Shown here: positions 2,241 through 30,963 of the stretch, in pieces
Layout of the letters: each line of letters begins with the position of its first letter
How positions within the stretch are numbered: the stretch's first letter is position 1
Assembly: GCA_043744455.1 (NCBI GenBank)
Contig: JAYTUQ010000138.1
Coordinates: 4,051-68,050 of the forward strand
Reading direction: 5' to 3'
DNA length: 64,000 nt
Origin: Saprospiraceae bacterium
GTDB lineage: Bacteria > Bacteroidota > Bacteroidia > Chitinophagales > Saprospiraceae
Made by a program: the position numbers and the translations under genes
The notes under the pieces: generated by a model
Database searches by the model: none
Seen by the model: the letters and a program-made list of their open reading frames with translations, nothing else
Told to the model about the DNA's origin: nothing

Positions 2241-2389
2241 AAGTCAATATTTTATATTGTTGTTTGAAAAAAAGTTTTTAAAAGTATCGTTTTAATCGTC
2301 CAAAAATATACTACTAAATCTAAGCAGCCTAAGATTGGGTCATAAAAAACATTAAAATATTCTTTATTCGTTTTATAATGGTCAAAAAT

Positions 2390-3703: not shown

Positions 3704-3838
3704 AGTTAGTTTTTTTTAGAAAAAATTGTTTTATTCTTTCTCATGTCATGAACTCAGACAATAAACATTATTAATAACAACGGCTGAAACACATCATAGT
3801 GCATCAGCCGTTGTTCATATAAATCCTAATTTGGACGT

Positions 3839-4912
3839 TTAGATTCGTTTCAAAATCTCCTCTCCAATCGCATCAGTGCCCAAAATCATATTTTTAGGTG
3901 TGTTTGCGTCAGCGATATCGCCCGTTCTGAAACCTGCTTTGAGCACAGCATCAACGGCTGCAATTATCGCTTCCGATTCTTCTTTCATACCAAAAGAAAT
4001 ATCTAACAACAAAGCCGCAGACAAAACAGAAGCCATTGGATTGGCAATGCCCATGCCCGTAATATCGTGTGCCGAACCATGAATTGGTTCATAAACGCCT
4101 GTGCTATCCCCTACCGAAGCCGATGCCAACATACCCATAGAGCCAGCAATTTGAGAGGCTTCGTCCGTCAAAATATCGCCAAATAAGTTGCCTGTAACGA
4201 CCACATCGAAGCGGCGCGGGTCTTTAATCAACAACATAGCTGCGGAATCAACAAATTGATGTGTCAACTCAACATCTGGATAATCTTTAGCCACTTCTAG
4301 AACTGTTTCACGCCATAAACGACTGCTCTCCAACACATTAGCCTTGTCAACGGACATTAATTTGTTGCGGCGAGTACGTGCTGCTTCAAATGCGCGGCGA
4401 GTGATGCGCTCGACTTCATAGCGGTGATAACCTGCAATATCGTAAGCGTAAGTATTCTCTTCGTTACGCCCTTTTTCGCCAAAATAAATATCGCCAGTCA
4501 ATTCCCTGAAAAAGAGAATATCGGCACCCCTCAGTAATTCGGGCTTAATGCTCGATGCGTCTAAGAGTTCATCAAACAATTTGATTGGACGTAAATTGGC
4601 ATATAAACCCAATTCTTTACGCATTCTCAAAAGCCCTTGTTCAGGGCGCACTTTCGCTGTCGGGTCATTGTCATATTTTGGATGACCGACGGCGCCAAAC
4701 AAAATAGCGTCCGAAGCCCGCATTTTCGCCAATGATTCATCAGGCAACGGATTGCCCGTCGCTTCAATCGCTGCATGACCGATGAGGGCTTCGTCATAGA
4801 CGAATTCATGCCCAAATTTGGCGGCAATTTTGTCCAAAACCTTTTTGCCAACGGCAGTTACTTCCTGCCCAATACCGTCTCCTGGGACGATTAAGATGTT
4901 CTTTTTTGCCAT
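3839..4912 (-). CDS. leuB: 3-isopropylmalate dehydrogenase
   Basis: Full-length match in style to LeuB: ILIVPGDGIGQEV, LFGAVG, NLRP, GDILTDEASQIAGSMGMLASAS, YEPIHGSAHDI. Confidence 0.95.
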   Translation of the reverse strand: MAKKNILIVPGDGIGQEVTAVGKKVLDKIAAKFGHEFVYDEALIGHAAIEATGNPLPDESLAKMRASDAILFGAVGHPKYDNDPTAKVRPEQGLLRMRKELGLYANLRPIKLFDELLDASSIKPELLRGADILFFRELTGDIYFGEKGRNEENTYAYDIAGYHRYEVERITRRAFEAARTRRNKLMSVDKANVLESSRLWRETVLEVAKDYPDVELTHQFVDSAAMLLIKDPRRFDVVVTGNLFGDILTDEASQIAGSMGMLASASVGDSTGVYEPIHGSAHDITGMGIANPMASVLSAALLLDISFGMKEESEAIIAAVDAVLKAGFRTGDIADANTPKNMILGTDAIGEEILKRI

Positions 4913-4972
4913 AATTTTATTGAAAAATACTGATTATACTGAGGGGGTGTGTTTATGATAAAAAATTGATTT

Positions 4973-5971
4973 TTAAGTAAATTGATTTAAAATTTTAATA
5001 AAATCTTCTTTCGAAGGCAATACAAGTTCAAATTGACTCGCAAATATTTGAGTATTGTCTTCAGGCAAAGTATATTCAACAACCATATCACTTTTAAGGC
5101 GGCAAAGAACAATACCTATTGTCTTATTCTCGTCGGGTAAGCGCATTTCTCTATCATAATAATTGACATACATCTGCATTTGTCCAATATCTTTATGTTC
5201 GATTTCACCAATTTTCAAATCTACCAGAACAAAGGATTTCAGAATACGATTGTAGAAAACTAAGTCAATATGGAAGTGTTTTTCATCAATCGTAATTCGT
5301 TTTTGTCTTGCTACAAATGTAAAACCTTTACCTAATTCAAGTAAAAATGCTTCTAATTGTTCAATAATAGCCGTCTCAAGTTCAGACTCTGAATAGGCGT
5401 GATGTTCTTTCAAGCCTAAAAACTCTAAAATATAAGGATCTTTAATCAAATCTTTAGGCGACTCGATAACTTGTCCTTTCTTGCTCAGTTCTAAAACTCC
5501 TTTTTTGTCTCTGCTTAAAGCTAATCTTTGATAAAGTGCCGAATTAAACTGTCTTTTCAATTCATCAATACTCCAATTATTATGAGCGGTTTCTATTTCA
5601 TAAAAGCGTCTTTCATTTTCATCTTTCAAGCGCATCAAGAAAACGTAATGTGTCCATGAAATATGAACATTATGCAGTATATCCAATTGGTCAGTTGCCA
5701 ACTGACCAATTGGATATACTGTATAAAATTGACGCATTTGCTTCAAATTTGTAAGCGAAAAGCCCTTCCCAAACTCTCTCGTTAGCTCTGAACTAAGCTG
5801 TTTCATCATTTCAGAAGCATATTTTGCTCGCTTTTGCCCATGTTGTTCTTCTACAACAATTCGCTTCCCAATATGCCAATATGTAACTACCATCGTTCTA
5901 TTAACATTTCGCTGCACAGATTTTCGGGCTTCGATAATGAGTTTTCTTATATCTTCCAGTATTTGTTGCAT
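4973..5971 (-). CDS. YhcG-like PD-(D/E)XK nuclease domain protein (DUF1016 family)
   Basis: The N-terminus IEARKSVQRNVNRTMVVTYWHIGKRIVVEEQHGQKRAKYASEMMKQLSSELTREFGKGFSLTNLKQMRQFY is typical of DUF1016. The C-terminal segment IDLVFYNRILKSFVLVDLKIGE fits a D..(D/E)xK nuclease core. Confidence 0.75.
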   Translation of the reverse strand: MQQILEDIRKLIIEARKSVQRNVNRTMVVTYWHIGKRIVVEEQHGQKRAKYASEMMKQLSSELTREFGKGFSLTNLKQMRQFYTVYPIGQLATDQLDILHNVHISWTHYVFLMRLKDENERRFYEIETAHNNWSIDELKRQFNSALYQRLALSRDKKGVLELSKKGQVIESPKDLIKDPYILEFLGLKEHHAYSESELETAIIEQLEAFLLELGKGFTFVARQKRITIDEKHFHIDLVFYNRILKSFVLVDLKIGEIEHKDIGQMQMYVNYYDREMRLPDENKTIGIVLCRLKSDMVVEYTLPEDNTQIFASQFELVLPSKEDFIKILNQFT

Positions 5972-5997
5972 CGTTTTCTCAAATTATATGATTATCT

Positions 5998-6096
5998 CTA
6001 ATTTATGGTCGAAATAAGCGTTGCATCATAGCCTTGACTCGCCAAATAATGTCCAACTTTATTACCGACACCCACATCCAGAATTAATTTTAGCAT
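5998..6096 (-). pseudogene. truncated DUF5615/Mut7-C-like putative toxin remnant (32 codons)
   Basis: Own translation MLKLILDVGVGNKVGHYLASQGYDATLISTIN* sits 3 nt downstream of the DUF433 gene. It looks like only the N-terminal third of the PIN-like partner that normally follows DUF433. Confidence 0.4.
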
Positions 6097-6099
6097 TGA

Positions 6100-6348
6100 T
6101 TAAGCGGCGTTTGCAAAAACTTTTTTTGATGCCACTAATTCGGCAGCATACAACATAGATGCTTGAATATCAGCATATTCCAAGAAAGGGTAATCTTCTT
6201 TCAATTGCTCAAAAGTTAACCCTGCTGCTAATGCTTTGAGGACATGCTCAACAGTCAATCGCATGGTTCGGATAGTTGGCTTACCCGTCATAATGTTTGG
6301 ATTTACGGTAATGCGTTCTAATAATATCGCGTGTTCTGTATCTTTCAT
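6100..6348 (-). CDS. DUF433 domain protein (putative antitoxin-like)
   Basis: ITVNPNIMTGKPTIRTMRLTVEHVLKALAAGLTFEQLKEDYPFLEYADIQASMLYAAE matches the DUF433 pattern (GKP.I.GTR..V..vl). Confidence 0.7.
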   Translation of the reverse strand: MKDTEHAILLERITVNPNIMTGKPTIRTMRLTVEHVLKALAAGLTFEQLKEDYPFLEYADIQASMLYAAELVASKKVFANAA

Positions 6349-6448
6349 TGTCGTAAGTTTTTACAAAAAAAACGTTTTTTAATCAAAAAGCTAAAATATA
6401 CTGAGGGGGTGCTTCAAACCGCTGCAAAATTTCTTGAAAATAGGGTAT

Positions 6449-7615
6449 TTAGTTTAATGTGGGAAAAATAGTTTTTAAAAATTCATTCAAACTACAAACC
6501 AACGTTCCATCTGCTTTGGGAAATGTATCCGTTTCTTTGACAATAATAAACTTGTCTTTAGCTTTTAAATCTGCTGCACTGTTGTAAAAACCAATGCTTA
6601 CTTTTGTTGAGACTGAAATTTTGACTTCAACAATATAAATATTTCCTAATGGGCTTTGTAAAACCAAATCGGCTTCTGATCCTGTATGTGTTCGGTAAAA
6701 CGAAAATTGCCAACGTTCAGGTGCAGCGCGCTTAATTTGTTCGATAACATAACCTTCCCAAGATGCCCCAAAATGCCGATGTCCAAATAATTGTTCAAAA
6801 CTGTTAATGCCACTTAAAGCATGAAAAATACCAGAATCGCGGAAATAAAATTTAGGTGCTTTGACCAATCGTTTCCCAATATTTATGTAATATGGAGACA
6901 ACCGATAAATGAGAAAACTGCCTTCTAAAATATCTAAATAACGGGTTAAAGTCGGTGCTGAAATACCTAATGAACGGCTTATATCACTGATATTCAATAA
7001 GTTACCATGAAAATTAGTCAACATCTGTAAAGTACGTCGCATCATTTCAGGCGCAATTTCATAGCCTAAAATACGCAAATCACGCTCTAAAAAAGTATTA
7101 ATAAAATTATCTATCCATCGCCAAACAATGTTTTCATTGTCCATCAAAAGGGGTTCAGGAAAGCCTCCGCGTAACCAATGTTGCTCAAGAGATAAATTAG
7201 TTGGTAATTCCCTCAATGAGATAGGTGTTAGTTCAGAATAAGCAATGCGCCCTGCCAAAGATTCTGAACTGTCGCGCAAAACATTAGGCGAAGCTGAGCC
7301 CAAAATCAAGAACCGTCCTGCGTGCCGATTTTCATCTACTAAGGCACGCAACAAAGGAAAAAGGCGTGGTAATCGTTGAATTTCATCAATAACAACCAAT
7401 TTGTCTTGATGAAAACGCAAGTATGTTTCTGCTTCCGTTAAACGTTGTAAATCACTGTCTAACTCTAAATCAAGTTGTACAAAAGGCTTGTTATAATCAA
7501 GAAGTAACGTATTTGCAAGCGTTGTTTTACCGACCTGTCGAGGACCTACGATGCCTGTAACAGGAAAGTAATTCAGATTTTCAAGTACAGTTTGGCTTAA
7601 TTCACGTTTTATCAT
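6449..7615 (-). CDS. AAA family ATPase with DUF4143 C-terminal domain
   Basis: Walker A is GPRQVGKTT and Walker B-like is LVVIDEIQ. The overall layout is the AAA_14 + DUF4143 type common in Bacteroidota. Confidence 0.8.
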   Translation of the reverse strand: MIKRELSQTVLENLNYFPVTGIVGPRQVGKTTLANTLLLDYNKPFVQLDLELDSDLQRLTEAETYLRFHQDKLVVIDEIQRLPRLFPLLRALVDENRHAGRFLILGSASPNVLRDSSESLAGRIAYSELTPISLRELPTNLSLEQHWLRGGFPEPLLMDNENIVWRWIDNFINTFLERDLRILGYEIAPEMMRRTLQMLTNFHGNLLNISDISRSLGISAPTLTRYLDILEGSFLIYRLSPYYINIGKRLVKAPKFYFRDSGIFHALSGINSFEQLFGHRHFGASWEGYVIEQIKRAAPERWQFSFYRTHTGSEADLVLQSPLGNIYIVEVKISVSTKVSIGFYNSAADLKAKDKFIIVKETDTFPKADGTLVCSLNEFLKTIFPTLN

Positions 7616-11270: not shown

Positions 11271-12674
11271 TTACATGAGGTCACGCGGGTCAGTAACGAC
11301 ACCTGTAACGGCGGCGGCGGCAGCGACAAGCGGACTTGCCAACAGCGTCCGTGCGCCTGGTCCTTGACGACCCTCAAAATTGCGATTGGAAGTACTAACA
11401 GCATATTTTCCAGCAGGAACTTTGTCATCATTCATTGCCAAACAAGCAGAACAGCCCGGTTGACGAAGGGCAAAACCCGCTTCAATCAATATATCCAAAA
11501 TGCCTTCTTCTTTAATTTGCGATTCAACGATGTGCGAACCTGGCACCAACCAAGCGGTGACATTATCGGCTTTTTTACGACCTTTAACGATAGAAGCGAA
11601 GGCGCGGAAATCTTCAATTCGTCCATTCGTGCAGCTGCCCAAAAAGACATAATCAATTTGCTTACCCTTCATGGCTTCGTTTTCATGGAAACCCATGTAG
11701 TTCAATGCTTTATCAAAAGTGATTTTACCACCGCCGACTTGTTCTGCTGTAGGAATAGATGCTGAAACGCCGAGACCCATGCCCGGATTCGTGCCGTAAG
11801 TAATCATTGGCTCGATTTGACTGCCGTCATAAACATATTCTATGTCAAAAACAGTTCCTTCGTCAGTCTTCAAAGTGCGCCAATAAGCGACTAATTCATC
11901 CCATTTATCCCCTTTTGGTGCTAATGGACGACCGTTTAGGTAGTTAAAAGTTGTTTCGTCGGGCGCTATCATACCGCCACGTGCGCCAGATTCGATACTC
12001 ATATTACAGACGGTCATGCGACCTTCCATTGTCATACTTTCAAAAACTTCACCGGCGTATTCTACAAAATAACCCGTTGCGCCACTCGCTGAAATTTGAG
12101 AAATGATATACAATGCTACGTCTTTTGGCATCACACCTTTTCCTAATGTGCCGTTGACTGTAATCCGCATTTTTTTAGGCTTTGGCTGCATGATACATTG
12201 CGAAGACAAAACCATTTCAACCTCTGATGTACCAATGCCAAAAGCAATTGCGCCAAAAGCACCATGCGTAGAGGTATGAGAATCACCGCAAACGATGGTC
12301 ATACCGGGCAAAGTGATGCCGTTTTCAGGTCCAACGACATGAACGATACCGTTTTTTGCATGTCCTAAACCCCAGTGCGAAATACCGTATTTCGCCGAGT
12401 TGCGCTCCAAAGCATCTAATTGGTTGGCAGATAATTTGTCCTTTACGGGCAAATGTTGATTGATAGTTGGGGTATTGTGGTCAGCTGTTGCGAAGGTTCT
12501 ATCGGAGTACATAACGTCCAAACCTCTGCTCTCTAAACCCACAAATGCCACTGGACTGGTCACTTCGTGAATAAAATGACGGTCAATAAAGAAAATATCG
12601 GGACCACCAACGATTTGTCTAACCACATGTGTATCCCAAACTTTGTCGAATAATGAAAGTGCTGTATTATCCAT
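11271..12674 (-). CDS. leuC: 3-isopropylmalate dehydratase large subunit
   Basis: Aconitase-family motifs are present: [46 protein letters not shown]. Confidence 0.95.
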
Positions 12675-13023
12675 TTTAATTATTATATTTTTAGTGGTGC
12701 GAAATTAAAGTAATTGGGTCAAAAACAAGATAAAATGATGTGTGGGATTACGATGTCCAAAATAGTAATTTTTAAAACTTTATTTGGATGGTTATGAATT
12801 CATCATAATACCCCCCCTCAGTATTTGCTCGATTTAGAAATACTTTACAAATCCGTTAGGATTTTCACGTTTGTAAAAAAACATAAGCCTTTCTTTCCAT
12901 TTTTTAAGTATGTTTGTTTCAAAAATATTGGAACAATATTTATAAACCTTAGACATATTTAGAAGGACAAAAATCCTTACACTTTTTACACCATTTTTTA
13001 TTCACTCTAAACGCTTTGTTCAA

Positions 13024-18834: not shown

Positions 18835-19501
18835 TCAGTTAACCCAAATCGTCACAGGTTCACTATACCCACTCACCAACGTACCCGCACCAATACTTTT
18901 AAGACGATATGTTTTTTTTGCGCCCACTTCCAAATCCGTCAATTGCAAAGATGTTTGGCTGCAATATTTGCCATTTTGCCATTTGCCTTCACTATCTAAT
19001 TCTTCCAAACCATAGGTGATTGCCCCTTTAACGAATCATTATATTATTCTTGAAAACAATAAAAGTAGAAAATACTGAGGGGGTCAAAACATCCGAAGTT
19101 ATGTTTGTCCCATTTGACGTTATGTTTGTCCCATTTGACGTTATGTTTGTCCCATTTGAAGTTATGTTTGCCGCATTTGAAGTCATTTTTGTCCCATTTG
19201 AAGTTATTTTTGCCGCGTTTGAAGTTATGTTTGTCCCATTCGAAGTTATTTTTGCCGCATTTGAAGTCATTTTTGTCCCATTTGATTTATTTTTGCCGCA
19301 TTTGAAGTCATTTTTGTCCCATTTGAAGTTATGTTTGTCCCATTTGACGTTATGTTTGCCGCATTTGAAGTTATTTTTGCCGCATTTGAAGTTATGTTTG
19401 CCACATCCGAAGTTATGTTTGCCACATTTGAAGTTATTTTTGCCGCATTTGAAGTCATGTTTGCCGCATTTTAAGTTTGGGCAATGAAGAAAGAGACTCA
19501 A
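18835..19501 (-). pseudogene. decayed repeat-containing gene: heptad-repeat region plus out-of-frame FN3-like C-terminal fragment
   Basis: Minus-strand frame B at 18835-19029 translates to FVKGAITYGLEELDSEGKWQNGKYCSQTSLQLTDLEVGAKKTYRLKSIGAGTLVSGYSEPVTIWVN*, which looks like an FN3 C-terminus but has no start. The upstream 157 aa ORF (19028-19501) is the tandem repeat read in another frame, changes register inside the array, and has a TTG start and no signal peptide. Confidence 0.35.
19095..19471. repeat. tandem array of 18 x 21-bp units (consensus GAAGTTATGTTTGYCSCATTT)
   Basis: Units were delimited by hand. Two alternating variants are present (..ATGTTTGTCCCATTT and ..ATTTTTGCCGCATTT), and unit 10 (19284-19303) is 20 bp. 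The unit is stop-free in several frames, which explains the four overlapping ORFs in the track on both strands. Confidence 0.95.
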
Positions 19502-19665
19502 AAGGAGGCTTATATTCCTGTTTTACCTCACTTTTAGGATATTTTAAAAATTTCCTACTGTTTTTTAATCTTGAAAAAAATTTATCGTCCGTTTGTATAG
19601 GGATAAAATGAGAAGGGCGGCGTGTTGTGACACGTTGCCCTTTAGGTTTTTGCAGTATAAACCAT

Positions 19666-20127
19666 TTATAATCCCTTTAACTTTGCAATTGCCAAAACTA
19701 TCCAAACGAATAAAGTAATCAAAATCATAATTCCATAGAAAGATTTTAAAGTATCAGACTTCATCGCACTTTCATGTGAATTCCTCTCTTTCATTTTCTT
19801 TTCTTGCTCCTTTTCAGTTGGATCAAAATTATAAGCGTAATGATTCATCTCATATCCAATCACTTTGCCAATTCTAACATCGTCATATAAATCCCTAAAC
19901 AACCTTTCTTGCCATAGAAAATAGCCGTCAAGATACCAAAATAATACAATCGGCATGAATGCAATAGGAACGACAAATATCGGATTTCCTTTGTCTGCTG
20001 TTGCAAATCCGAGTATGATTGCAACGATACTAATACACCAACCTTTCAACTGAAAGGAATTACTACCCATTCTCGTTATCGCATTTTGAACAAATTCAAG
20101 ATGTTTTTCTTTTACTTCAATTGTCAT
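19666..20127 (-). CDS. small 3-TM membrane protein (candidate effector), 153 aa
   Basis: Hydrophobic helices WCISIVAIILGFA, IFVVPIAFMPIVLFWYLDGYF and the C-terminal FYGIMILITLFVWIVLAIA. The WYLDGYFLWQERLFRDLY motif follows TM2. The start overlaps the upstream gene by 11 nt. Confidence 0.7.
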   Translation of the reverse strand: MTIEVKEKHLEFVQNAITRMGSNSFQLKGWCISIVAIILGFATADKGNPIFVVPIAFMPIVLFWYLDGYFLWQERLFRDLYDDVRIGKVIGYEMNHYAYNFDPTEKEQEKKMKERNSHESAMKSDTLKSFYGIMILITLFVWIVLAIAKLKGL

Positions 20128-20650
20128 AATGTTGCAAATTGTTAAAATGAAATAATGTTAACCCTCCATCTGTTAGCTGAGTAGCGATTGTCGCAGCCAA
20201 TAACACCAATTTGTATTCCAGCTTTAATTTATTACTAAATTTACTCAGCGACACCGCAAGTTTTTGTATACTTTTTAAAACTTCTTTATTAGGATTTTCT
20301 GTTGCTAAAAATACCGCTTCTGATGCCTTTGAAAATACCTTTTTCATATCCGTTCTCAAATCTGCATATTTCTGAGCGTCAAATTTATTCTCTGGAAAGA
20401 TATTTTCTAATTCTGCCCACTTTTCATTTAGCTGTTTTAAAATTTCTGAGGTTAATATTAATTTAGGGCGTATTTCTTTTTTCCAACCTTTTGATTTTTT
20501 ATTATCTTCAAACCATCCAATAGAAAAATATTCAGACATAACACTACAAAATAAGGCAATGGTACTTGTAGAAGTATCATTGCTATCTAGATTCTCAATG
20601 AGCCATTTAAGCTCCTCTTTTTTCCCTATTAAGAATTTTGTTTCAGCCAA
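20117..20650 (-). CDS. hypothetical all-helical protein, 177 aa (TTG start)
   Basis: The ORF fills the gap between the TIR-like and 3-TM genes, starting 19 nt after the upstream stop and overlapping the downstream gene by 11 nt. Very AT-rich; no family recognised. Confidence 0.6.
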   Translation of the reverse strand: MAETKFLIGKKEELKWLIENLDSNDTSTSTIALFCSVMSEYFSIGWFEDNKKSKGWKKEIRPKLILTSEILKQLNEKWAELENIFPENKFDAQKYADLRTDMKKVFSKASEAVFLATENPNKEVLKSIQKLAVSLSKFSNKLKLEYKLVLLAATIATQLTDGGLTLFHFNNLQHYDN

Positions 20651-20669
20651 ATATTATCATCAAAATATT

Positions 20670-21731
20670 TTAATTAGTTAAAGATTCATAAAAGAAGAAG
20701 GCATCTTTTTTTATTAACTCTAACTTTTCAATTATTAAACCTAAACTTTTGAGCAATTTATTATCAACAGAATTCATAACTCCGAATTTTCTTGATGAAG
20801 ACTGATCATAAGTAACTGATAGAAAATCATAAAAATTTTCGATTTCGGAGTTTAAATTATTCTTTGGGTCTTCGAAACAAGATTTCAATAGCTTTACTAT
20901 TGTTAGTAATTTCTGTATTGCTATTTCTCTTTTTTCTGCATTTTTATAATCTTCTTTACATGTAATGCAAATAGGAATTATTTTTCGACAAAAAATGTAA
21001 GAATGAGGTTTATTGGGGTAAATTGGTTTTGTAATTTCCAATTCATACCAAACTTCATTGTTTGTGACTTTTCTTAAAGAATTTTCCATGCTTTGTGTTA
21101 ATGGTTGCATTTTTTCAATCATTTGAGAGATGAGTAAATCAAGATTTGAATCATGTTTGCTGTTCTCTGCTTCCTCTTTTTCTGTTACTTTATCAATATT
21201 ATTTGTTTTGGTTTTTTTTTTTGAAAGCATAGCTTTATAAGATGTCTTAACTGATTTAGCCAGTACTTTCATGTATTCATTTATATCATCATCATGAAGG
21301 CTTTCAAAAGATATGGGTTTATCCTTTTTATGTATTGCACCAGGTCCCATTGATTTTGAATATTCGCCCCAATAAGCCTGAAATAACCAAGTTTGATAAT
21401 GCGCTGGTAATTCATTTACCTCACAGGCTTCGAAAATAACGGAATGTAATGTCAATAGTTCATTATTGTCATATCGTTTTCGTAAAACGGGTAATTCATA
21501 CTTTCTGACAAATTTATCTTCGTTAATGACTACGTCTGGTGTCAAAAGAATGATTGCGATATTACATTCTGTTGCCCATCTTAAACATACTTCTGTTGGC
21601 AGTCCATCTGCTGCTATTTGGTCATGCAATGGATTACATGTGAAATGCCTTTGAAAGGCACTCACAAATTTATTAAGTAATATTTTATTCGGCGACGAAT
21701 AAGGAAAAAAGACTTTCGGTAAAGTTGTCAT
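20670..21731 (-). CDS. TIR-like domain protein with helical C-terminal extension, 353 aa
   Basis: The N-terminal ~105 aa follow the TIR_2 pattern: KVFFPYSS (betaA), CNIAIILLTPDVV (betaC), FVRKYELPVL (candidate catalytic Glu79) and LLTLHSVIFEACEV..LP (betaD). The C-terminal 240 aa are Lys/Glu/Asn-rich and helical. Confidence 0.6.
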   Translation of the reverse strand: MTTLPKVFFPYSSPNKILLNKFVSAFQRHFTCNPLHDQIAADGLPTEVCLRWATECNIAIILLTPDVVINEDKFVRKYELPVLRKRYDNNELLTLHSVIFEACEVNELPAHYQTWLFQAYWGEYSKSMGPGAIHKKDKPISFESLHDDDINEYMKVLAKSVKTSYKAMLSKKKTKTNNIDKVTEKEEAENSKHDSNLDLLISQMIEKMQPLTQSMENSLRKVTNNEVWYELEITKPIYPNKPHSYIFCRKIIPICITCKEDYKNAEKREIAIQKLLTIVKLLKSCFEDPKNNLNSEIENFYDFLSVTYDQSSSRKFGVMNSVDNKLLKSLGLIIEKLELIKKDAFFFYESLTN

Positions 21732-21799
21732 TGTTTGAATATCTTTTTGCTGTTTAACGCAATGTTTAATTCAAACCACGTCTTACTTTTTTCATTTGA

Positions 21800-21807
21800 C
21801 AAAAGTA
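21800..21807 (-). promoter_or_regulatory. candidate Bacteroidota -7 box (TACTTTTG = TAnnTTTG) for the TIR-like operon
   Basis: The minus-strand sequence TACTTTTG lies about 70 nt upstream of the ATG at 21731, within a 175-bp AT-rich spacer after the mod gene. Confidence 0.25.
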
Positions 21808-21905
21808 GGATTTTGTTTTACGAATAAAACATCTTGTATTAAATATTTTTTATTCATATTTCCTTCAATAATATGTTTTATTGTTTTAAAAATCTAATTG
21901 CCATG

Positions 21906-24173
21906 TTACCCAACCACCACCGTAAAAACCCGACTCGTATCTATCCCCAATATATCCACAATCTTAACCATGACTTTATAAGTGCCAGACTTTGGATAAG
22001 TATGAACTGTACTTGTCAACTCAATGCTTTTGTCTTTGCGGGTGCGGAAACTTTGCCATTCGTTTTCAAATATGTAATTGCCTGTCCATTGTTCTTCATC
22101 GTTTTCTAAGCGAATGATTTCTTTTTTGCTTTCGTAATCAAAGTCTATTGCCCAATAATCCACCCAATCTGTCCAGTTTTCAGTTAAGTTGCTTTGAGTG
22201 ACGTCGCCTGTGGTTTTGTCCTTTTCAACTTTGATGATTTGTCCCATATCAATGATGACTTTTGATTGTCCGCTTTTCAGATTGTCTAACACTTTGTCGA
22301 GATTGTCTTGTGTGTAATTGCTCACGAAATTCGTCAATTCGACTTTTAGGGTTAACTTCTTCTCGCTTGCATCGGGATTTTCTTGGTCAACAGTATGCAA
22401 GGCGGCATCTAAGTAGCCGACATCAAAAAACTGAACTTGTCCTTTCTCTCTAACCCGTTTATCAAAGACATCGTTGGGCACACGACGCAAACGGATGTCT
22501 AAATCGCTGCCTTGTAAATAGTAATCCAAGGTCGTTTTGATGTCCATTTCAAAATCAAAAGCCAATACATCGCAGTACGTGTAACCCAATTCGCGCATTT
22601 CATCTGCCACTTCTAATACGCGGCTTTTGGTGACGGGTACATCTAACAAACCGATATGTACCCAACGTCCTGCTTTTTTACCATGCAATGTCCGATGCCC
22701 AATCACTTGTGTGGCAGCATAAGCTTCGAGCATAAATTTGATAAAATCATCTTCGGCGTGCTGCATACTGAGGGGGTCGCCTTGTTTGCCAAAACGTTCG
22801 ATGTTCATAAAAAACTGTCGTTCGTATTTGCCCAAGTTCAAAACCTCAAAAGCACGGTAATCTTTGCCGCTTTTTTGTTGCTCACGTTGTATGGCTATCA
22901 TGCGTTTGCGCGTGGTGTGTATCGCAAAGCGTCCTAAATCGGTCGTTATCCATTTCCGGTTGAGCTTTTCGGCTACGGCGGCGGTTGTGCCACTACCACA
23001 AAAGAAGTCGGCAATTAAATCATCTTCGTTGCTGCTTGCTTTTATGATGCGTTCAAGTAAAGATTCAGGTTTTTGGGTAGGATAACTTGCAGATTCATTT
23101 GCTTGCGAATTAACTGGAAATATATCAACCCATAAGTTATCTATCATTTTCCCTTCGGAATCATCTAAATATTGTTTTTTTCTAGGATTACCACTTGATG
23201 TAAATTCTATTAGATTGTTTGACATAGCTTCATCAATTCGTTCTTGTGACCAAATCCAATGCATTCCAGATGGTGGTTGCAAAATCTTATCTCCAAAATG
23301 TCTTTCAGGACCTTTACCTTTTTGAACTAAACTCACTAATTGATATCGTTTTCCAGTTTCTCTTTCAACCTTATCAAACTTTTTTTCATAATCAGAATTT
23401 TGCTCAATAAATATAGGGTTCAAGCGAGTTTCTTTTGATTTTGTATAATAAAGAATATGGTCGGATACTGTACCATAACTAGAACTTTGAGCCTTAACAA
23501 CCCTAATTTTCTGCCAAATTATCTCATTTTGAAGTTTATCACTACCAAAAATATCATCTAATATAATTCTCAAATAACTATTCATTCTTGAATCCACATG
23601 CACATAAATAGACCCCTCAGTATGGAGCAAACTGTGCATCAATTTCAACCGTTCATACATCATAGAGAGATAAGAAGAAATGCCACGTCCCCATGTATCA
23701 CGATAAGCAATTTCCTCAATAACAGATTGTCTTTTTTCAGCTGTTTCACCTGCTATTTCAACATTAAACCCAAAATCAGAACCGACCGCAAAAGGTGGGT
23801 CAATATAAATGAGTTTCAAACCGCCTTGCTCGTCTATTTCTTTTCGCAACGGTCCATGTGCCAAAGAAGAAAGAATGAGTTTATTGTCGCCCCAAATCAG
23901 TTTGTTTGTCCAACCTTTGAGTTGTCGCCCACGTGTATCGGTTTCAAACAGCGAAAACATTTCGCCTTGTTTTGTGGCTTCCTTACGTGGTTCGTCAATA
24001 TGTTCGATGCTGTGAAAAGGAAGAACAGAGCGCGTGACTTCTTCCGAACGTCCGTTCCAAAAAAGGAAAACATCTTCATCGTCGGCGAAGAGTTTGTAGA
24101 TAAATTCTTTGGGTAGTTTTTTACCTTGTTTTATGAGGTTGATAAGGTCGTTTTTTTCAGATTCGTTGAGCAT
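21906..24173 (-). CDS. mod: beta-class N6-adenine/N4-cytosine DNA methyltransferase (Type III Mod-like) with Ig/PKD-like C-terminal tail
   Basis: Motif IV (LIYIDPPF) precedes motif I (DFFCGSGTTAAVAEKL) by about 260 aa, the beta permutation with a central TRD. The C-terminus HTYPKSGTYKVMVKIVDILGIDTSRVFTV is PKD-like. Confidence 0.85.
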   Translation of the reverse strand: MLNESEKNDLINLIKQGKKLPKEFIYKLFADDEDVFLFWNGRSEEVTRSVLPFHSIEHIDEPRKEATKQGEMFSLFETDTRGRQLKGWTNKLIWGDNKLILSSLAHGPLRKEIDEQGGLKLIYIDPPFAVGSDFGFNVEIAGETAEKRQSVIEEIAYRDTWGRGISSYLSMMYERLKLMHSLLHTEGSIYVHVDSRMNSYLRIILDDIFGSDKLQNEIIWQKIRVVKAQSSSYGTVSDHILYYTKSKETRLNPIFIEQNSDYEKKFDKVERETGKRYQLVSLVQKGKGPERHFGDKILQPPSGMHWIWSQERIDEAMSNNLIEFTSSGNPRKKQYLDDSEGKMIDNLWVDIFPVNSQANESASYPTQKPESLLERIIKASSNEDDLIADFFCGSGTTAAVAEKLNRKWITTDLGRFAIHTTRKRMIAIQREQQKSGKDYRAFEVLNLGKYERQFFMNIERFGKQGDPLSMQHAEDDFIKFMLEAYAATQVIGHRTLHGKKAGRWVHIGLLDVPVTKSRVLEVADEMRELGYTYCDVLAFDFEMDIKTTLDYYLQGSDLDIRLRRVPNDVFDKRVREKGQVQFFDVGYLDAALHTVDQENPDASEKKLTLKVELTNFVSNYTQDNLDKVLDNLKSGQSKVIIDMGQIIKVEKDKTTGDVTQSNLTENWTDWVDYWAIDFDYESKKEIIRLENDEEQWTGNYIFENEWQSFRTRKDKSIELTSTVHTYPKSGTYKVMVKIVDILGIDTSRVFTVVVG

Positions 24174-24197
24174 AATGTTTATTTTGATGGTAGAATG

Positions 24198-26876
24198 TTA
24201 TTCAAAAGTAAAAAGGTTTTCCATATCATGGAAATCCCGAATGGTGTCTGCATACTTATCCCAATCTTCTTGTTTGATGTAGAGTGTTTTATAAACAAAT
24301 TGCAGTTGCAAATTATTAACATCTTTACACCATTGCGCTAAGCGTTTGATTTTGCGCACATCGTCAAGGTCTTCCCGTCCTTTTGTTTCGACAATAAAAA
24401 TCTCTTTATCATTCTTTTTAACTAAGAAATCAGGGAAATAGGTACTGATATTGCCATTCTCTGCTTGATATTCTATTTGGAAGTTAACACCATTTGCACC
24501 AAAGGTATTTTTAGCAAAAGCTTTGATTTGAGACGAGGTATTGAGTTTTTTTGCAAAAGTGCGTTCAAAAGCAGAATCGCCAATCACTAAATTGAAAATA
24601 GTCAGTGATGACGCAAAAGAAGACTGACGACCAACAAGTTTAGGCTGAACAGTCAATAAACTTCTAAAGTCCGAAGAACGTAAATAAACATCCTTCCTTT
24701 CAACTACCGTTAAATCATCAATCGCTTTTTTGAAAATCTTTTGTAGTGCTTGTTGATTCTCTACTTTGATAATATTTCGAGCCGTATTATCATCAAGCGG
24801 TACAGTCTTACCAAAAAACTGATGTTGAATAAACGCCTGAACTTTTGGATATAGTAAATCAAAGCCTTGCATCAAACGGCTTTCACTCAACATCATTTGC
24901 GTCAAAAAGCCAATAACGTTGCGATAGTTCGGAATTTGATTATTGAAAAAAGACCGATGCGATTCTACGCCATCAATATCTACAAAAACTATTTCTCTTG
25001 AATCATCATCATGTGCATTCGTAAAATATTTACCTTTTTCAAAGGCTGTCATACTGAGGGGGTCTAAATGTTCTAAGTTTTTAAATTCACGAACAAAACG
25101 CGGCGTAATAATAGGTGTTAAAATATCCAATACCGCTAAATCTTTTTCTGTATTTTCTTTATCCAACTCGACATAAAAGCCAGAAATGGCAGAAGTACCT
25201 TTACCCATCGGACTGTACTCAAACGAAACGCCTTCTGTTTTGAGTTCTTCAACAAAATCCATAAATTTAGGTGTTCCGATGACGACTAATTTCTCTTCTT
25301 GACCAATCGGAAACATTTTTCTTAAACCACGTCCAATAGCTTGTTCGGGCAGAATTTTATTATCAGTTGAAAACATACGTAAACCGACAATCGTCGTCAC
25401 ATTTTTCACGTCCCAACCTTCACGTAACATCAAAACAGATACAACTGCCCGATAAGGCGACATATCGCTGTCAATATCATTTGCCGCTTCACGTAGCTTT
25501 TTTAGTTCTTCTTTATCTTTTTTAGAAATGCCTTCGCTGATTTCACCATTAGACTTTGTGTGAATGGTCAAAACCTTATCTTTCAACTTTGGTAATGTGT
25601 TGAGATAATCGGCAACTTTGTTAGCATCTTTTGTATCAGCCGACATGACAAACAGAACAGGTGTTTTGTGTGGCAAAAATGCTTCAAACTGTTTTTCCCA
25701 TTCTGAATAACCTAAATCTAAAAAGTCTTTGTAGCGTTCTATGAAATCATCAGAAGGTTTTTCAATCAATAACTTACGGCTTTCATCATCAGGCAAAACA
25801 GGCGTTTTAACGACACCTTGTTTAATCGCTTCAACAAGTGGATAATCACAAACTGTTTGAGGAAAAATGCCGCCTGAACTATTTTTAGGCGTCGCTGTAA
25901 AATCTGTTTGCAAAGACAAACCAAAACCATTTTCATCTTCCAAACGCTCATGAATTTCTTTAATACTTTTGAACCAAGCTAAAGAAGGGTTGTGTACATG
26001 ATGGGCTTCATCATTCAAAATAACAAGGTCTTTGATTTTACCACCCCTCAGTAATTTACCCAAATCTAAGCCTTTTGAAGTATCTGCATCGGGTTTGGGT
26101 TTAGCACCCAAATAAATTGTTTCAGGTTCATTCAGTGTTTTATCTTCGTTGAAAAATACCCGATGAATATTTGTCAAAAAAACATTTCCATGTTGTGCTA
26201 ATGTTTTCAATTCATCTTGAAAATGATAAGTAAACTGAAAATCGGTATGCCAATCACGGTCTTTAAAACCATCAATGGGAATGAAAGGCTCTTGAAACAA
26301 CATTTTCAGTTCTCCCAAATCTTTCTTCAAACGTTCTAAAACAATGATATTTGGCGCTATAATGAGAAAATTACGTGAAAGACGGCTATCAGTCTCGTAG
26401 AGTTTATGAAAATAAGCCCAAACAAGTGTCAAAGCCATTACTTTGGTTTTACCTGCACCCGTTGCCATTTTGATAACGTAACGTGTCCAATCTTCTGGGA
26501 ACATACCCGTAGATAAACGTCCGCCAGAACCATCAAAACGCATCAAATCATACTTTTCATAAGCCTGTTTTACTTCAAAAAGATAGGCAATTGTTTCTAT
26601 CGCTTCACGCTGCGAAAAGAAAAAGCGAAAATTATCAGGATGTGGTTGTTGAAACCAAAAAGTAAATAAGGCTTTTGTTGTATCACTGACACCAGAGTAG
26701 TCTTTTTCGCGCCATTCATGAACAGCCGTTCTGACTTTTGCAACAAGCGGCGGCATGAGTTTAGAGAAATCTTCAAAATCTAATTCTTTTTTGGTACTAT
26801 TAGGCACCCAACGGTCTTTGGGTGGGACGATTGTAAACGGGTTAGAAAGTGTTGCTGTTTTTTCGTTATTGGACAT
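24198..26876 (-). CDS. res: Type III restriction enzyme Res subunit (SF2 helicase + PD-(D/E)XK nuclease)
   Basis: Walker A MATGAGKTKV, DEAH box LNDEAHHV and motif VI MLREGWDV. The C-terminal YFPDFLV...IVETKG is a D...ExK endonuclease motif. The mod gene follows 24 nt downstream. Confidence 0.85.
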   Translation of the reverse strand: MSNNEKTATLSNPFTIVPPKDRWVPNSTKKELDFEDFSKLMPPLVAKVRTAVHEWREKDYSGVSDTTKALFTFWFQQPHPDNFRFFFSQREAIETIAYLFEVKQAYEKYDLMRFDGSGGRLSTGMFPEDWTRYVIKMATGAGKTKVMALTLVWAYFHKLYETDSRLSRNFLIIAPNIIVLERLKKDLGELKMLFQEPFIPIDGFKDRDWHTDFQFTYHFQDELKTLAQHGNVFLTNIHRVFFNEDKTLNEPETIYLGAKPKPDADTSKGLDLGKLLRGGKIKDLVILNDEAHHVHNPSLAWFKSIKEIHERLEDENGFGLSLQTDFTATPKNSSGGIFPQTVCDYPLVEAIKQGVVKTPVLPDDESRKLLIEKPSDDFIERYKDFLDLGYSEWEKQFEAFLPHKTPVLFVMSADTKDANKVADYLNTLPKLKDKVLTIHTKSNGEISEGISKKDKEELKKLREAANDIDSDMSPYRAVVSVLMLREGWDVKNVTTIVGLRMFSTDNKILPEQAIGRGLRKMFPIGQEEKLVVIGTPKFMDFVEELKTEGVSFEYSPMGKGTSAISGFYVELDKENTEKDLAVLDILTPIITPRFVREFKNLEHLDPLSMTAFEKGKYFTNAHDDDSREIVFVDIDGVESHRSFFNNQIPNYRNVIGFLTQMMLSESRLMQGFDLLYPKVQAFIQHQFFGKTVPLDDNTARNIIKVENQQALQKIFKKAIDDLTVVERKDVYLRSSDFRSLLTVQPKLVGRQSSFASSLTIFNLVIGDSAFERTFAKKLNTSSQIKAFAKNTFGANGVNFQIEYQAENGNISTYFPDFLVKKNDKEIFIVETKGREDLDDVRKIKRLAQWCKDVNNLQLQFVYKTLYIKQEDWDKYADTIRDFHDMENLFTFE

Positions 26877-28012: not shown

Positions 28013-28984
28013 GTTTTCAACTATCCATTTAACGATGGTTTCGATGACCCCCTCAGTAAGTGGCAATTCAGTTTGTTGATAGACCTTTTGGGCACTTATC
28101 CTATTGGCTTCACCGTCTTTCAGCACATGCGTCATATTATTAAAATACACAAGTTTGGCTTTGGGATTGGCTTTTGACAACAATTCTGCTTCTTTGGGTG
28201 GTACTTGAATATCATTTTTGCCTGAAATGAGTAAAATGGGCAGTTTAAGTTTGGTTATTTCCACTTGTGGTGAATATTTCATAACTGAAACCATAAACTT
28301 TTCAATGGCAGGATTCGCCAAACTGCGTAATGTAGGCGGAAATGAATCTACTTTCTCACCTTTTTTCCATTTACTATACACGTCTTTGAGTTGCGGCACT
28401 AAAAACGGGGCTTGTTTACCGAGTTGCTCATATATAATTGTGTCCATGCTTTGCGCTGTGCCACATAAAGAAATCAAAGCATCGATTTTTGTCTTTTGAA
28501 CCGCTAAAAGCGCAATCAAAGAACCTTCTGAATGTCCAGCTATTATGAATTTGGTAAAACGCCGTTTCCGTTTCATGGACTTTAAAGTATCCATCCAATG
28601 GGTTGCATCATTCACAAAATCATTAAAAGTTACGTCTTCCACTTTCTGCGTCATTTTACTTTTGCCAATATGCCTTTTGTCGTATCTGAAACTGGCAATA
28701 CCTTTCGCGGCTAAACCTTCTGCTAACATTTTAAAACTATTGGTTTTTAAACCCAAAGCACTGTTGCAGTCTCTATCGGTTGGTCCTGAACCTGCAATGA
28801 TAAGCACAACGGGCATACGTTTGACACGTGTGGGCGTAATCAAAGTTCCTTCAAGCAAACCATCTTGAAGCTTTAAAGTTAAAATTTCCTCTTTATACTG
28901 AGGGGTCTGTGCAAACGTAGAAAACGTATTGAAAAAGAGTAAAAAAGTAAAAGCGAATCGAATTTCCATACTTCTAATGTTCAA
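28007..28984 (-). CDS. secreted alpha/beta hydrolase
   Basis: Signal peptide ending FSTFAQ, nucleophile elbow GHSEGS and a late His (MTHVLKDG). Its start overlaps the upstream 660 aa gene by 4 nt. Confidence 0.8.
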   Translation of the reverse strand: MNIRSMEIRFAFTFLLFFNTFSTFAQTPQYKEEILTLKLQDGLLEGTLITPTRVKRMPVVLIIAGSGPTDRDCNSALGLKTNSFKMLAEGLAAKGIASFRYDKRHIGKSKMTQKVEDVTFNDFVNDATHWMDTLKSMKRKRRFTKFIIAGHSEGSLIALLAVQKTKIDALISLCGTAQSMDTIIYEQLGKQAPFLVPQLKDVYSKWKKGEKVDSFPPTLRSLANPAIEKFMVSVMKYSPQVEITKLKLPILLISGKNDIQVPPKEAELLSKANPKAKLVYFNNMTHVLKDGEANRISAQKVYQQTELPLTEGVIETIVKWIVENG

Positions 28985-30963
28985 TTATTTATTTTAGTCT
29001 TTTTAGCAATGACTTGCGCTTTATCTTGTTCTTCACATTCGCGGCAAATCTCACCACAATCCCATTCTTTAATTTGCCCCGCAACAAGCTTACCTTTAAA
29101 ACAACAAATCAAAAGATGACCATTTTCTAAAAGTAAATCAATTTGTTCTGAACCACCTGTTTTATTAGTGTTAAAAAACTTAACGATGCACTCATCTTTA
29201 TCAAAACGAACATCCACTTCGCCATACTTTCTGTTGACAGTTATTTTATCTTTAACCAACCGCAACTTATCGCTTAATTTAAAATGAATTTCATAAGGAA
29301 TACTTTCACAATCAAAGTCTTTAAGAATCATTTTTTTATTTGTAGTTACTTTTATTTGCCCTAAATGATTATCTTCTTTAGCTTTAATATTAAATGTTTT
29401 ATGAAGCGGCAAAACAAGTTTTAATGAATTGTTGTTGATGCTGGCTATTTTTATTTGTTCACCTTTATTTATGGTAATAACAGGATTTGTAAAAAATTTA
29501 TTGGGAAACCTTAATGTTACAGTTGATTTGGTATTTGAGACAGATGAATTAATTACTTTACCTCTAACAGTTGTAAGTTCTAAATCAACCCTTTGAGTAT
29601 TGCTATAAATATTATCACGTAAAAGAATAGATATTATTGAATCTTTTCTTGGCGGTGCATAAATAACCTTAAATGTATGGAGACGATTTATTTCCAATAA
29701 TGGTTTTAAAGTGTCACCATTATACATCATAAAGTTATTTGCAATACCATTTACCAATAATTTAAACTGATTTGTATCGTTAGGAATAACTTTACCTTTC
29801 ATACTTGTAAATTCATTCAATACAACATTTATTCGTTTATAAACTTTAATATAGTTCGAAGGTATAAGTGTTAAATCGACATAAGGCTTGTTTGTATTTA
29901 AATCACGTATGGTCATGTTATAAAGTTTTGGCGATTCTTCATTAACGCTTTTAAACTTAATTTTTGTTGGATAAGAAGATTCATTAGATGGTATCACTAA
30001 AACGCGTTGTCCCTTGTTATTTACTTCAAGAAAAGCCTTATTATCATCAATAAGTGCAATGTCTGTTTCTTTATCATTAAATGGATAAGCATCGGGTAAT
30101 ACAATTCTACGTTTATTATCGTTTGATGACGAGTTCTTAGAAATAGGCGGTTGTAATCCAGGCATGCCCACTAACATAACAACACCAAGAATAAGCGCAA
30201 TTTGTGCCATCCCATTCTTTAAAGTAAAAAACAAAACCCTTTGAGCCGTTGTGTGTTGACCATAATAAATATGCGTTGGTTTATAATTGGGTAAGGCACA
30301 TTCAGGTTCTAAATTTTGCTCTTTATTCAATGCCACATTTATTTCAACAACGGTCACATCTTCTCTTTTTTTAGTTTTATTCAAAACATCAATAGTTATG
30401 CCCGTAATTGTTAAAATCAATGCATGATTGCCATCTTTATTACCTGTTAGCCAAAACTTCCAACTGTTAATTTCTCCAGATACAACGGATTGTAGCGTTA
30501 ACTTATTTAACGGTTCAATCGTAAACGCATCATCCGTTGCAGTTAGATTAACTTCCATTTCATCGCGTAAATAAATATCTTCATAAATATTCTTAAATTT
30601 AGTGGCAATGGTTTCTATTTGTTCATCGCTAATTTTTACTTCACACAAAATTTTCTTTCCTAAAGTCATCGCCGAAGGAATATTATGCACGGCATACCCT
30701 TTCTTAACAGGTTTAGTTGTTTTTGTTAATTCAATTTCAGCTAACAAATCTAAGAGGCTATTCGTAACGCGATTAATAGTCCGATTGTATTCATCATATT
30801 GAATAAGATGTCGGTCATGTTCGGTGCGATTCAACTCACCCAATAACGTGCATAAATAAATACGGTGTTTGAGAGTAGTTATGTTATCAATTAACAAATA
30901 AATGGCGTTTTGTAAATCACCTTTTTTGATAAAGTTTTCGACATTGGTTCTAATAGTTTCCAT
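28981..30963 (-). CDS. 660 aa single-pass membrane protein: helical adaptor-like N-terminus, central TM, Asn/Lys-rich beta-rich exterior, Cys-rich tail
   Basis: The N-terminus NVENFIKKGDLQNAIYLLIDNITTLKHRIYLCTLLGELNRTEHDRHLIQYDEYNRTINRVTNSLLDLLAEIE resembles short effector-associated helical modules. The TM helix is MAQIALILGVVMLVGMPGL. The C-terminus carries CCFKG...CGEICRECEE. The gene is very AT-rich. Confidence 0.65.
   Translation of the reverse strand: METIRTNVENFIKKGDLQNAIYLLIDNITTLKHRIYLCTLLGELNRTEHDRHLIQYDEYNRTINRVTNSLLDLLAEIELTKTTKPVKKGYAVHNIPSAMTLGKKILCEVKISDEQIETIATKFKNIYEDIYLRDEMEVNLTATDDAFTIEPLNKLTLQSVVSGEINSWKFWLTGNKDGNHALILTITGITIDVLNKTKKREDVTVVEINVALNKEQNLEPECALPNYKPTHIYYGQHTTAQRVLFFTLKNGMAQIALILGVVMLVGMPGLQPPISKNSSSNDNKRRIVLPDAYPFNDKETDIALIDDNKAFLEVNNKGQRVLVIPSNESSYPTKIKFKSVNEESPKLYNMTIRDLNTNKPYVDLTLIPSNYIKVYKRINVVLNEFTSMKGKVIPNDTNQFKLLVNGIANNFMMYNGDTLKPLLEINRLHTFKVIYAPPRKDSIISILLRDNIYSNTQRVDLELTTVRGKVINSSVSNTKSTVTLRFPNKFFTNPVITINKGEQIKIASINNNSLKLVLPLHKTFNIKAKEDNHLGQIKVTTNKKMILKDFDCESIPYEIHFKLSDKLRLVKDKITVNRKYGEVDVRFDKDECIVKFFNTNKTGGSEQIDLLLENGHLLICCFKGKLVAGQIKEWDCGEICRECEEQDKAQVIAKKTKINN

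Follow-up and report, generated by a model that had tools for sequence, protein, structure and literature searches.

Within a 64,000-nucleotide stretch of contig JAYTUQ010000138.1 from a Saprospiraceae bacterium (GenBank assembly GCA_043744455.1, positions 4,051 to 68,050; hereafter the window), three minus-strand genes are proposed to constitute a mosaic, type V-like Thoeris abortive-infection operon next to a Type III restriction-modification (R-M) pair, a reading to which we assign a probability of roughly 55%. In order of transcription, gene 1 encodes a protein with a TIR-like N-terminus, gene 2 a soluble orphan protein, and gene 3 a small membrane protein that would act as the effector.

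Type V Thoeris, composed of ThsB and the effector ThsF, has been experimentally validated (Yirmiya et al., bioRxiv Dec 2025, doi 10.64898/2025.12.03.692087). ThsF is annotated there as a DUF2270 protein with three membrane-spanning helices, and AlphaFold3 predicts that it assembles into a homo-heptameric, channel-like ring with positively charged pockets between protomers. In the type V system of Bacillus thuringiensis DAR 81934, added 3'cADPR (3' cyclic ADP-ribose) is toxic to system-bearing cells and the Tad1 sponge blocks defence; type V systems are also especially enriched in Bacteroidota (same source). PDC-M50, a two-gene cassette (FAM_00415>>FAM_00416), was nominated by 'guilt by embedding' in R-M, BREX and DISARM loci (Payne et al., bioRxiv 2024, doi 10.1101/2024.01.29.577857), and a literature search did not find the name 'PDC-M50' in the main text of any paper.

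The assignment is carried by gene 3, which very probably encodes a ThsF; this identification draws on the validated ThsB partners of its family, on its architecture of three transmembrane (TM) helices, and on a weak link to DUF2270. Gene 3 matches all four PADLOC PDC-M50A models (E = 8e-38, 5.5e-31, 9e-19 and 1.2e-18). Among the PHROGs it matches phrog_19896 (E = 1e-32). Nothing significant was returned by Pfam or NCBIfam, the only Pfam match being a sub-threshold one to DUF2270 (PF10028; E = 0.0068, 16.5 bits against a cut-off of 25). The DUF2270 annotation published for ThsF probably came from a more sensitive method. The alignment of 49 family members shows other weak Pfam matches, to DUF3278 in 13 members (best E = 4e-5) and to the octameric membrane protein 8xMP in 8, while the DUF2270 model is touched by only 6; a distant relationship of ThsF to other families of small, oligomeric membrane proteins is possible.

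The gene 3 family is large, with at least 459 homologues among clustered proteins and 562 loci in species-representative genomes, spread over many phyla. Its conserved motifs include KHLExxQ, NSFxLKGW and FWxLDGYFLWQERLFR, and gene 3 keeps all 17 invariant columns of the 49-member alignment, its linker carrying an insertion of ~13 residues relative to most family members. The three-TM architecture that had been described for it is borne out by hydropathy (TM segments at residues 24-43, 47-70 and 126-153) and by an AlphaFold2 model with a predicted local distance difference test (pLDDT) score of 86.6, in which a long helix at the N-terminus continues into TM1 and is followed by TM2, the linker and TM3 (helices at 3-44, 49-85 and 125-150). 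A Foldseek search of this model against the PDB gave no fold match, so that structure neither supports nor opposes a likeness to SLATT proteins or pore formers. At the sequence level, the SLATT-like identity suggested by the initial annotation finds no support, because no SLATT family is matched at E ≤ 1 by gene 3 or by any of 49 homologues; the ThsF/PDC-M50A family takes its place. By analogy with the other members of this family, gene 3 would be a 3'cADPR-activated, channel-forming effector.

The partnership with TIR proteins emerges from the genomic neighbourhoods of the gene 3 family, surveyed over 80 fetched loci, 77 of which entered a TIR census made with local profiles. Tight downstream neighbours (n = 52) comprised 32 ThsB_TIR, 12 TIR_2 and 3 CAP12-PCTIR_TIR proteins, and tight upstream neighbours (n = 40) 11 ThsB_TIR and 7 TIR_2 proteins; PADLOC PDC-M50B or ThsB models were matched by 29 of the 52 downstream neighbours. 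A TIR gene stands no more than 150 nt from the gene 3 homologue in 46 of the 77 loci, and within 3 kb in 7 more. CAP12-type TIR neighbours, seen by Pfam only, occur in 3 further loci and are taken to be the 335-aa cluster found in L034, L058 and L064. These neighbourhoods support a Thoeris-like role for gene 3, that of a small membrane effector working with TIR enzymes, and with it the Thoeris-like logic (a TIR protein paired with a small membrane effector) that had been put forward for the locus.

The link to validated systems is direct for the TIR partners. The supplement of Yirmiya et al. provides TIR sequences only, and these served as probes. In three loci (L043, L048 and L070), the TIR encoded immediately upstream of the gene 3 homologue shares 71% identity with the validated ThsB of Bacillus sp. 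1NLA3E, and the TIR adjoining the gene 3 homologue of L066 shares 52% with the validated ThsB of B. thuringiensis DAR 81934. These identities mark the gene 3 family as the partner encoded in operons with validated type V ThsB proteins. Plasmid-borne homologues of gene 3 have a host distribution nearly identical to that of B. thuringiensis-type ThsB genes on plasmids, and genes of the two types are directly adjacent on the Klebsiella plasmid NZ_AP022022.1 (60639-61815). In all, 139 plasmid records, the majority of them conjugative plasmids of Klebsiella and E. coli, carry ThsF homologues, which are annotated just as 'hypothetical protein' beside 'TIR domain-containing protein' genes; type V Thoeris is apparently common among plasmids of enterobacteria but goes unnamed in current annotation.

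Gene 1, the putative signal synthase, belongs to a rare and divergent TIR lineage. It has no direct match in Pfam (E ≤ 1), PADLOC or NCBIfam, and nothing significant in PHROGs. A word-indexed search returned 2 close homologues (60% and 46% identity), an exhaustive search of 1.84 billion representative proteins with the gene 1 profile returned 17 matches, and a scan of Joint Genome Institute (JGI) metagenomes with the close gene 1 relatives found no close relative. Most profile matches cover residues ~2-170 of the query, and residues ~1-170 behave as a separable domain, which occurs alone in proteins of 169-205 aa and inside proteins of 1092 and 1696 aa. Three of the profile matches, P0128 (E = 3e-12), P0131 (E = 5e-10) and P0134 (E = 4e-7), score 40.4, 36.0 and 35.5 bits against Pfam TIR_2, whose cut-off is 28, and TIR_2 is matched by two other relatives (P0129 and P0130). 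The TIR_2-like start that had been read from the letters of gene 1 is thereby supported, through transitive homology, as a divergent TIR_2-type domain. Further, weaker evidence agrees with this. When the family profile was searched against the PDB, the N-terminal domain matched solely TIR proteins, namely SpbK (E = 0.003) and 7uxr (E = 0.08), the similarity to SpbK being confined to the first ~45 residues of the domain.

The motifs originally quoted for gene 1 are present, among them the candidate catalytic Glu79, whose position is presumably that of the catalytic residue of TIR NADases. This glutamate is invariant in 17 of 17 aligned family members; it stands in a conserved E(L/I/V)P(I/V)L motif after a hydrophobic beta-C strand, and falls within one column of the WVxxE-motif glutamate when aligned to the Table S1 ThsB sequences. 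The C-terminal domain is common to the full-length relatives (P0126, P0128, P0134, P0135, P0137, P0140 and P0141) and found no family match in Pfam, PADLOC, NCBIfam or a PDB sequence search. A low-confidence AlphaFold2 model of gene 1 shows an N-terminal beta-alpha alternation (E6-11/H16-29/E33-38/H46-55/E58-63) followed by an all-helical C-terminal half, and TIR domains dominate its weak Foldseek matches.

TIR domains of the gene 1 type lie beside ThsF in other genomes as well. In L074 (Roseivirgaceae), such a domain belongs to a 256-aa protein encoded 174 nt downstream of ThsF (E = 6e-14); in L009 (Chitinophagales), one is part of an operon that combines a Roc-GTPase, several TIRs and ThsF (E = 1.5e-13); and in L080 (Aureivirga), one occupies residues 984-1090 of a 1171-aa LRR/Roc protein (E = 7.5e-13). 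Two of these loci present features of their own. The L009 genes (1799-6420 of a Chitinophagales metagenome-assembled genome) form an apparent five-gene operon encoding a Roc/COR GTPase-like protein of 501 aa, so called from the appearance of its sequence and not from Pfam, a gene 1-type TIR_2 protein of 185 aa, a TIR-like protein of 227 aa, a ParA-like ATPase of 469 aa whose C-terminus is TIR-like, and a ThsF of 143 aa; this would be a multi-TIR, multi-component arrangement related to type V Thoeris. In L080 (5971-9916, Aureivirga sp. CE67), the ThsF homologue is followed 5 nt further on by the 1171-aa protein, which resembles an NLR/ROCO-type sensor fused to a signalling TIR, and which is probably the source of the single LRR and Roc/Ras matches in the downstream-neighbour set.

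In a word-indexed search of 5.8 billion clusters, gene 2 has one homologue, P0125 (53% identity), and the gene 2 homologue is always found immediately downstream of a gene 1 homologue. It had been described as soluble and of no recognised family; hydropathy indeed gives no TM segment, and no match was found in Pfam, PADLOC, NCBIfam, PHROGs or the PDB. Profile-profile comparison detected no similarity between gene 2 and the C-terminal domain of gene 1, and hidden Markov models of both matched none of the open reading frames (ORFs) of the 77 ThsF loci. Gene 2 is proposed to encode an accessory protein specific to the rare gene 1 TIR lineage. A broader pairing, in which a TIR-helical gene and a gene 2-like partner would be conserved throughout the family, was considered and dropped. 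In L089-L094, a small helical ORF (125-166 aa) comes after each of the distant full-length gene 1 relatives, and profile-profile comparison detected no homology between these ORFs and gene 2, so that the likeness is positional only.

Several observations weigh against the type V-like reading of the operon. The comparison of gene 3 with the published type V systems ran through the ThsB partners of ThsF, and about a quarter of ThsF loci have no detectable TIR nearby, so that lone ThsF genes may exist. Gene 1 matches neither the PADLOC ThsB nor the PDC-M50B models, and hhalign gives its N-terminus a probability of 8% against ThsB-type partners; for these two reasons, gene 1 is, on profile evidence, not a TIR of the ThsB clade. 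Its AlphaFold2 model, built from a 3-sequence alignment, is poor (pLDDT 47), and Foldseek returned no match for it at E ≤ 0.001. The initial annotation had set the co-occurrence of the three genes beforehand as a check on the trio being a conserved unit, and this expectation failed: the trio is found in this genome only. The closest gene 1-gene 2 pairs (L001 and L100, on contigs that end upstream of the pair, so that the downstream side was read) have a convergent XisI gene 3' of the pair instead of ThsF. None of the distant full-length relatives in L089-L094 has a ThsF within 6 kb, which indicates that the gene 1 lineage can work without ThsF.

The same facts feed the main competing explanation, in which genes 1 and 2 would be a self-contained two-gene TIR abortive-infection module, the TIR acting as an NAD+-depleting effector, like SpbK, TIR-STING and comparable proteins, and gene 2 as its regulator or sensor, with ThsF appended secondarily, either as an independent or 'eavesdropping' effector or as the remnant of a type V system whose ThsB was lost. 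It is favoured by the pairs without downstream ThsF in L001 and L100, by the distant relatives in which a small helical ORF comes next and no ThsF lies within 6 kb (L093, in particular, has housekeeping flanks and no obvious effector), by SpbK, a TIR effector protein, being the top PDB sequence match of the gene 1 profile, and by the caution of Yirmiya et al. that some TIRs of putative Thoeris operons may be NADase effectors. However, the overlap of genes 2 and 3 and the single terminator of the trio favour co-expression, the ThsF family is overwhelmingly partnered by TIRs and gene 1 is the only TIR of the islet, gene 1-type TIR domains adjoin ThsF in the three genomes described above, and the small ORFs beside the distant relatives are not detectably homologous to gene 2. 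On balance, we regard such a self-contained module as rather unlikely.

The loci of the gene 1 relatives offered further observations. The XisI-family genes next to the sole other gene 1-gene 2 pairs lie at L001:1882-2226 and L100:831-980, and a Por_Secre_tail (type IX secretion) protein, also encoded in L100, points to a host from the Bacteroidota. In L002, the gene (fragment) that lies upstream of the homologue of gene 1 shows no likeness to ThsF, and the gene that follows the homologue is preceded by a strong Shine-Dalgarno sequence, AAGGAGG, suggestive of a different phylum. L091 (JGI metagenome Ga0209490_10000560) is a defence island that contains a CBASS-type TIR-STING gene, a deaminase and a DUF1016 protein but no ThsF; it holds two paralogous 'TIR_2 + helical domain' genes (5983-7540 and 11587-12988), each followed by an ORF of ~160 aa, and these pairs may represent an undescribed two-gene TIR system.

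Returning to the type V-like operon, the layout of the trio was examined together with its surroundings (Table 1). The three genes are one tightly packed, terminator-bounded unit: the ORF coordinates agree with the 19-nt gap between genes 1 and 2 and the 11-nt overlap between genes 2 and 3 noted at the outset, and the only terminator hairpin of the trio lies 3' of gene 3. The spacer 5' of gene 1 is AT-rich as first described, its length being 174 nt and not the 175 bp given then. It contains, at 21800-21807, TACTTTTG, which fits the Bacteroidota -7 consensus TAnnTTTG and may be a candidate promoter of the trio's own. Across the window, this consensus occurs 105 times against 92 expected, and since it is not enriched, the spacer motif counts as weak promoter evidence; a sigma-70 promoter scan gave a result not above chance.

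Table 1. Features of the operon and its immediate context, in window coordinates.
Feature	Position	Strand	Description
Gene 1	20670..21731	-	353 aa, ATG start; divergent TIR_2-type N-terminus and helical C-terminus; proposed atypical ThsB-like sensor/signal synthase
Gene 1 TIR-like domain	21222..21731	-	~aa 1-170; most profile matches cover query ~2-170
Glu79 codon (GAA)	21495..21497	-	candidate catalytic glutamate; codon verified
Gene 1 C-terminal helical domain	20673..21221	-	~aa 171-353; possible sensor or oligomerisation domain
Gene 2	20117..20650	-	177 aa, TTG start; soluble orphan, proposed accessory partner of gene 1
Gene 3	19666..20127	-	153 aa, ATG start; predicted three-TM effector, ThsF family (PADLOC PDC-M50A), type V Thoeris
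Gene 3 TM helix 1	19999..20058	-	aa 24-43, hydropathy; continuous with N-terminal amphipathic helix 3-44 (AlphaFold2)
Gene 3 TM helix 2	19918..19989	-	aa 47-70, followed by the conserved FWxLDGYFLWQERLFR motif
Gene 3 TM helix 3	19678..19752	-	aa 126-150; hydropathy and AlphaFold2
AT-rich spacer 5' of gene 1	21732..21905	-	174 nt, 23% GC, between mod stop codon and gene 1 start
Hairpin	19612..19643	.	14-bp, G+C-rich, ~25 nt past gene 3 stop codon; likely operon terminator
Type III-like R-M pair	21906..26876	-	mod 21906-24173, res 24198-26876; context, forming an islet together with the trio

The genes upstream of the trio had been called a Type III-like res-mod pair. Mod matches Pfam N6_N4_Mtase (E = 4.6e-43) and PADLOC MTase_III (E = 1.6e-113), and Res matches ResIII (E = 1.1e-15), the RE_endonuc endonuclease domain and PADLOC REase_III (E = 1e-16); by the combination of a Mod methyltransferase with a Res helicase-nuclease, as matched by these models, the pair is a Type III R-M system. 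Housekeeping genes flank the five on both sides, one side encoding MsrA, hydrolases and MurG and the other an amine oxidase, penicillin amidase and a POT transporter. The genome is assigned to Bacteroidota by a type IX secretion protein of the CHU_C kind. Exactly res, mod and genes 1, 2 and 3 make up the content of L102, an independent contig (7,517 bp) from a metagenome. Together, the housekeeping flanks and the five-gene content of L102 define the block as a compact defence islet of ~7.3 kb. The GC content of the trio, noted early on as low, is 30.7% compared with 37.7% for the window, which places it in the lowest 1.8% of same-size windows. This composition and the housekeeping genes around the islet agree with the recent horizontal acquisition that had been suggested, and support the locus as a horizontally acquired islet adjoining an R-M system.

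Such proximity raises another explanation, namely that the trio works with the adjacent Type III R-M system or as its accessory, an 'embedded' backup module read through from mod and not autonomous. The trio indeed lies on the same strand, directly 3' of res-mod, and the five genes are found together on independent contigs; PDC-M50 itself came to light as a cassette inside R-M, BREX or DISARM loci; and in a Daviesbacteria locus that parallels the window context, a methyltransferase, an MvaI/BcnI nuclease, a gene 3 homologue and a ThsB_TIR gene follow in series, the ThsF-ThsB pair likewise coming after an R-M pair. However, mod and gene 1 are separated by the AT-rich spacer with its possible -7 box, the GC content contrasts sharply (36-39% for res and mod), most ThsF-TIR pairs of the 80 loci are not beside R-M genes, and validated type V systems function as two-gene operons. 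Functional coupling of the trio to the R-M pair is considered improbable.

Around the islet, L102 terminates ~240 nt beyond gene 3, just before a 21-bp tandem array. In the window, this array (19095-19477, ~190 nt downstream of gene 3) comprises 18.3 copies of a 21-bp unit with the consensus GAAGTTATGTTTGCCCCATTT and a 42-bp super-period; most units hold TATGTTTG or TATTTTTG on the + strand, resembling the Bacteroidota -7 box, and the repeats probably account for the long ORFs called across it (19028-19501 and others). Just one further region of the window equals the trio in AT-richness (~30% GC); it holds a 660-aa ORF (28981-30963, - strand) with no Pfam match at E ≤ 1e-5, which may likewise have been acquired horizontally. 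Neither an Rfam nor a tRNA scan gave a match in the window.

It could also be argued that the locus is decaying or serves no defence function, with a non-enzymatic TIR of the adaptor type in gene 1, a gene 2 ORF that is spurious or lineage-specific, and an orphan membrane protein in gene 3. The extreme rarity of genes 1 and 2 would fit this view, as would the TTG start of gene 2 and its lack of a family. Yet the three ORFs are intact, genes 1 and 2 recur in another organism at 60% and 53% identity with invariant TIR motifs, gene 3 keeps every residue that is invariant in its family, and the locus sits in a defence context. A non-functional or non-defensive locus seems very improbable.

Compared with known systems, the operon is closest in its effector to type V Thoeris: gene 3 belongs to the family of validated ThsB partners, has three TM segments and a weak DUF2270 link, occurs in the phylum where type V is common, Bacteroidota, and shares an operon with a TIR gene. 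It also departs from type V. The TIR of gene 1 is neither of the ThsB_TIR nor of the PDC-M50B type, being a rare domain of the TIR_2 type with a helical domain of ~180 aa fused to it; the type V core has two genes, whereas here there are three, a 177-aa orphan gene being placed between the TIR gene and ThsF; and the gene 3 linker is ~13 residues longer than in most family members. The likeness to PDC-M50 lies in the matches of gene 3 to all four PDC-M50A models and in the locus abutting an R-M pair. However, no protein of the window matches PDC-M50B, the ThsB-like TIR, so that PADLOC would probably not call the system.

SLATT effectors define another Thoeris type, VII. In type II (ThsB with a Macro-TM effector, now ThsC) and type VII (ThsB with the SLATT effector ThsH), a TIR-made signal likewise activates a membrane-spanning effector, whereas gene 3 has neither a Macro nor a SLATT domain and a predicted fold with no PDB match. 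Stand-alone or effector TIR abortive-infection proteins (SpbK, TIR-STING, PycTIR) recall gene 1 in that SpbK is the best PDB sequence match of its profile and in that gene 1 relatives occur without a separate effector gene; the difference is that translational coupling ties a dedicated ThsF effector into the operon here. The claim of the initial annotation that the system is undescribed therefore holds in part. The core formed by a TIR and a gene 3-family protein had been reported as PDC-M50 in 2024 and type V Thoeris in 2025; the gene 1 family, gene 2 and their combination with ThsF are new here.

Altogether, a model can be drawn for the type V-like operon in which phage infection would activate gene 1, whose TIR domain would convert NAD+ into a signal derived from ADP-ribose; in validated type V systems, the signal is 3'cADPR. 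The helical C-terminal domain of gene 1, the co-inherited gene 2 protein, or both, could serve as sensor or regulator, gene 2 possibly acting as a co-sensor, an inhibitor or an adaptor. The signal would then bind between the protomers of an oligomeric ThsF ring, the membrane would be breached, and the infection would be aborted. A bolder version, which we hold only tentatively, is that genes 1 and 2 form an unrecognised two-protein sensor and signal-generator module (a rare TIR_2-helical lineage with an obligate small partner) plugged into ThsF. The result would be a three-component Thoeris, in which gene 2 would gate or specify TIR activation and the signal may differ from 3'cADPR.

Earlier publications cover the effector, the general logic and the modular nature of Thoeris, and what is gained here is a variant, not a new principle. 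The variant bears on detection, since current tools probably miss the locus: gene 1 fails the PADLOC models for ThsB and PDC-M50B, so that ThsF would look like an orphan here, and some of the ThsF loci in which no TIR is recognised may have cryptic TIR partners of the gene 1 kind. It also bears on sensing. How Thoeris TIRs sense infection is largely open, and a TIR with a dedicated helical domain and a small partner provides a tractable case for a different sensing arrangement, one in which a different signal could possibly feed the same ThsF pore. If genes 1 and 2 do form a two-protein module, Thoeris sensing can be split over two proteins, and TIRs far outside the ThsB clade can drive ThsF effectors.

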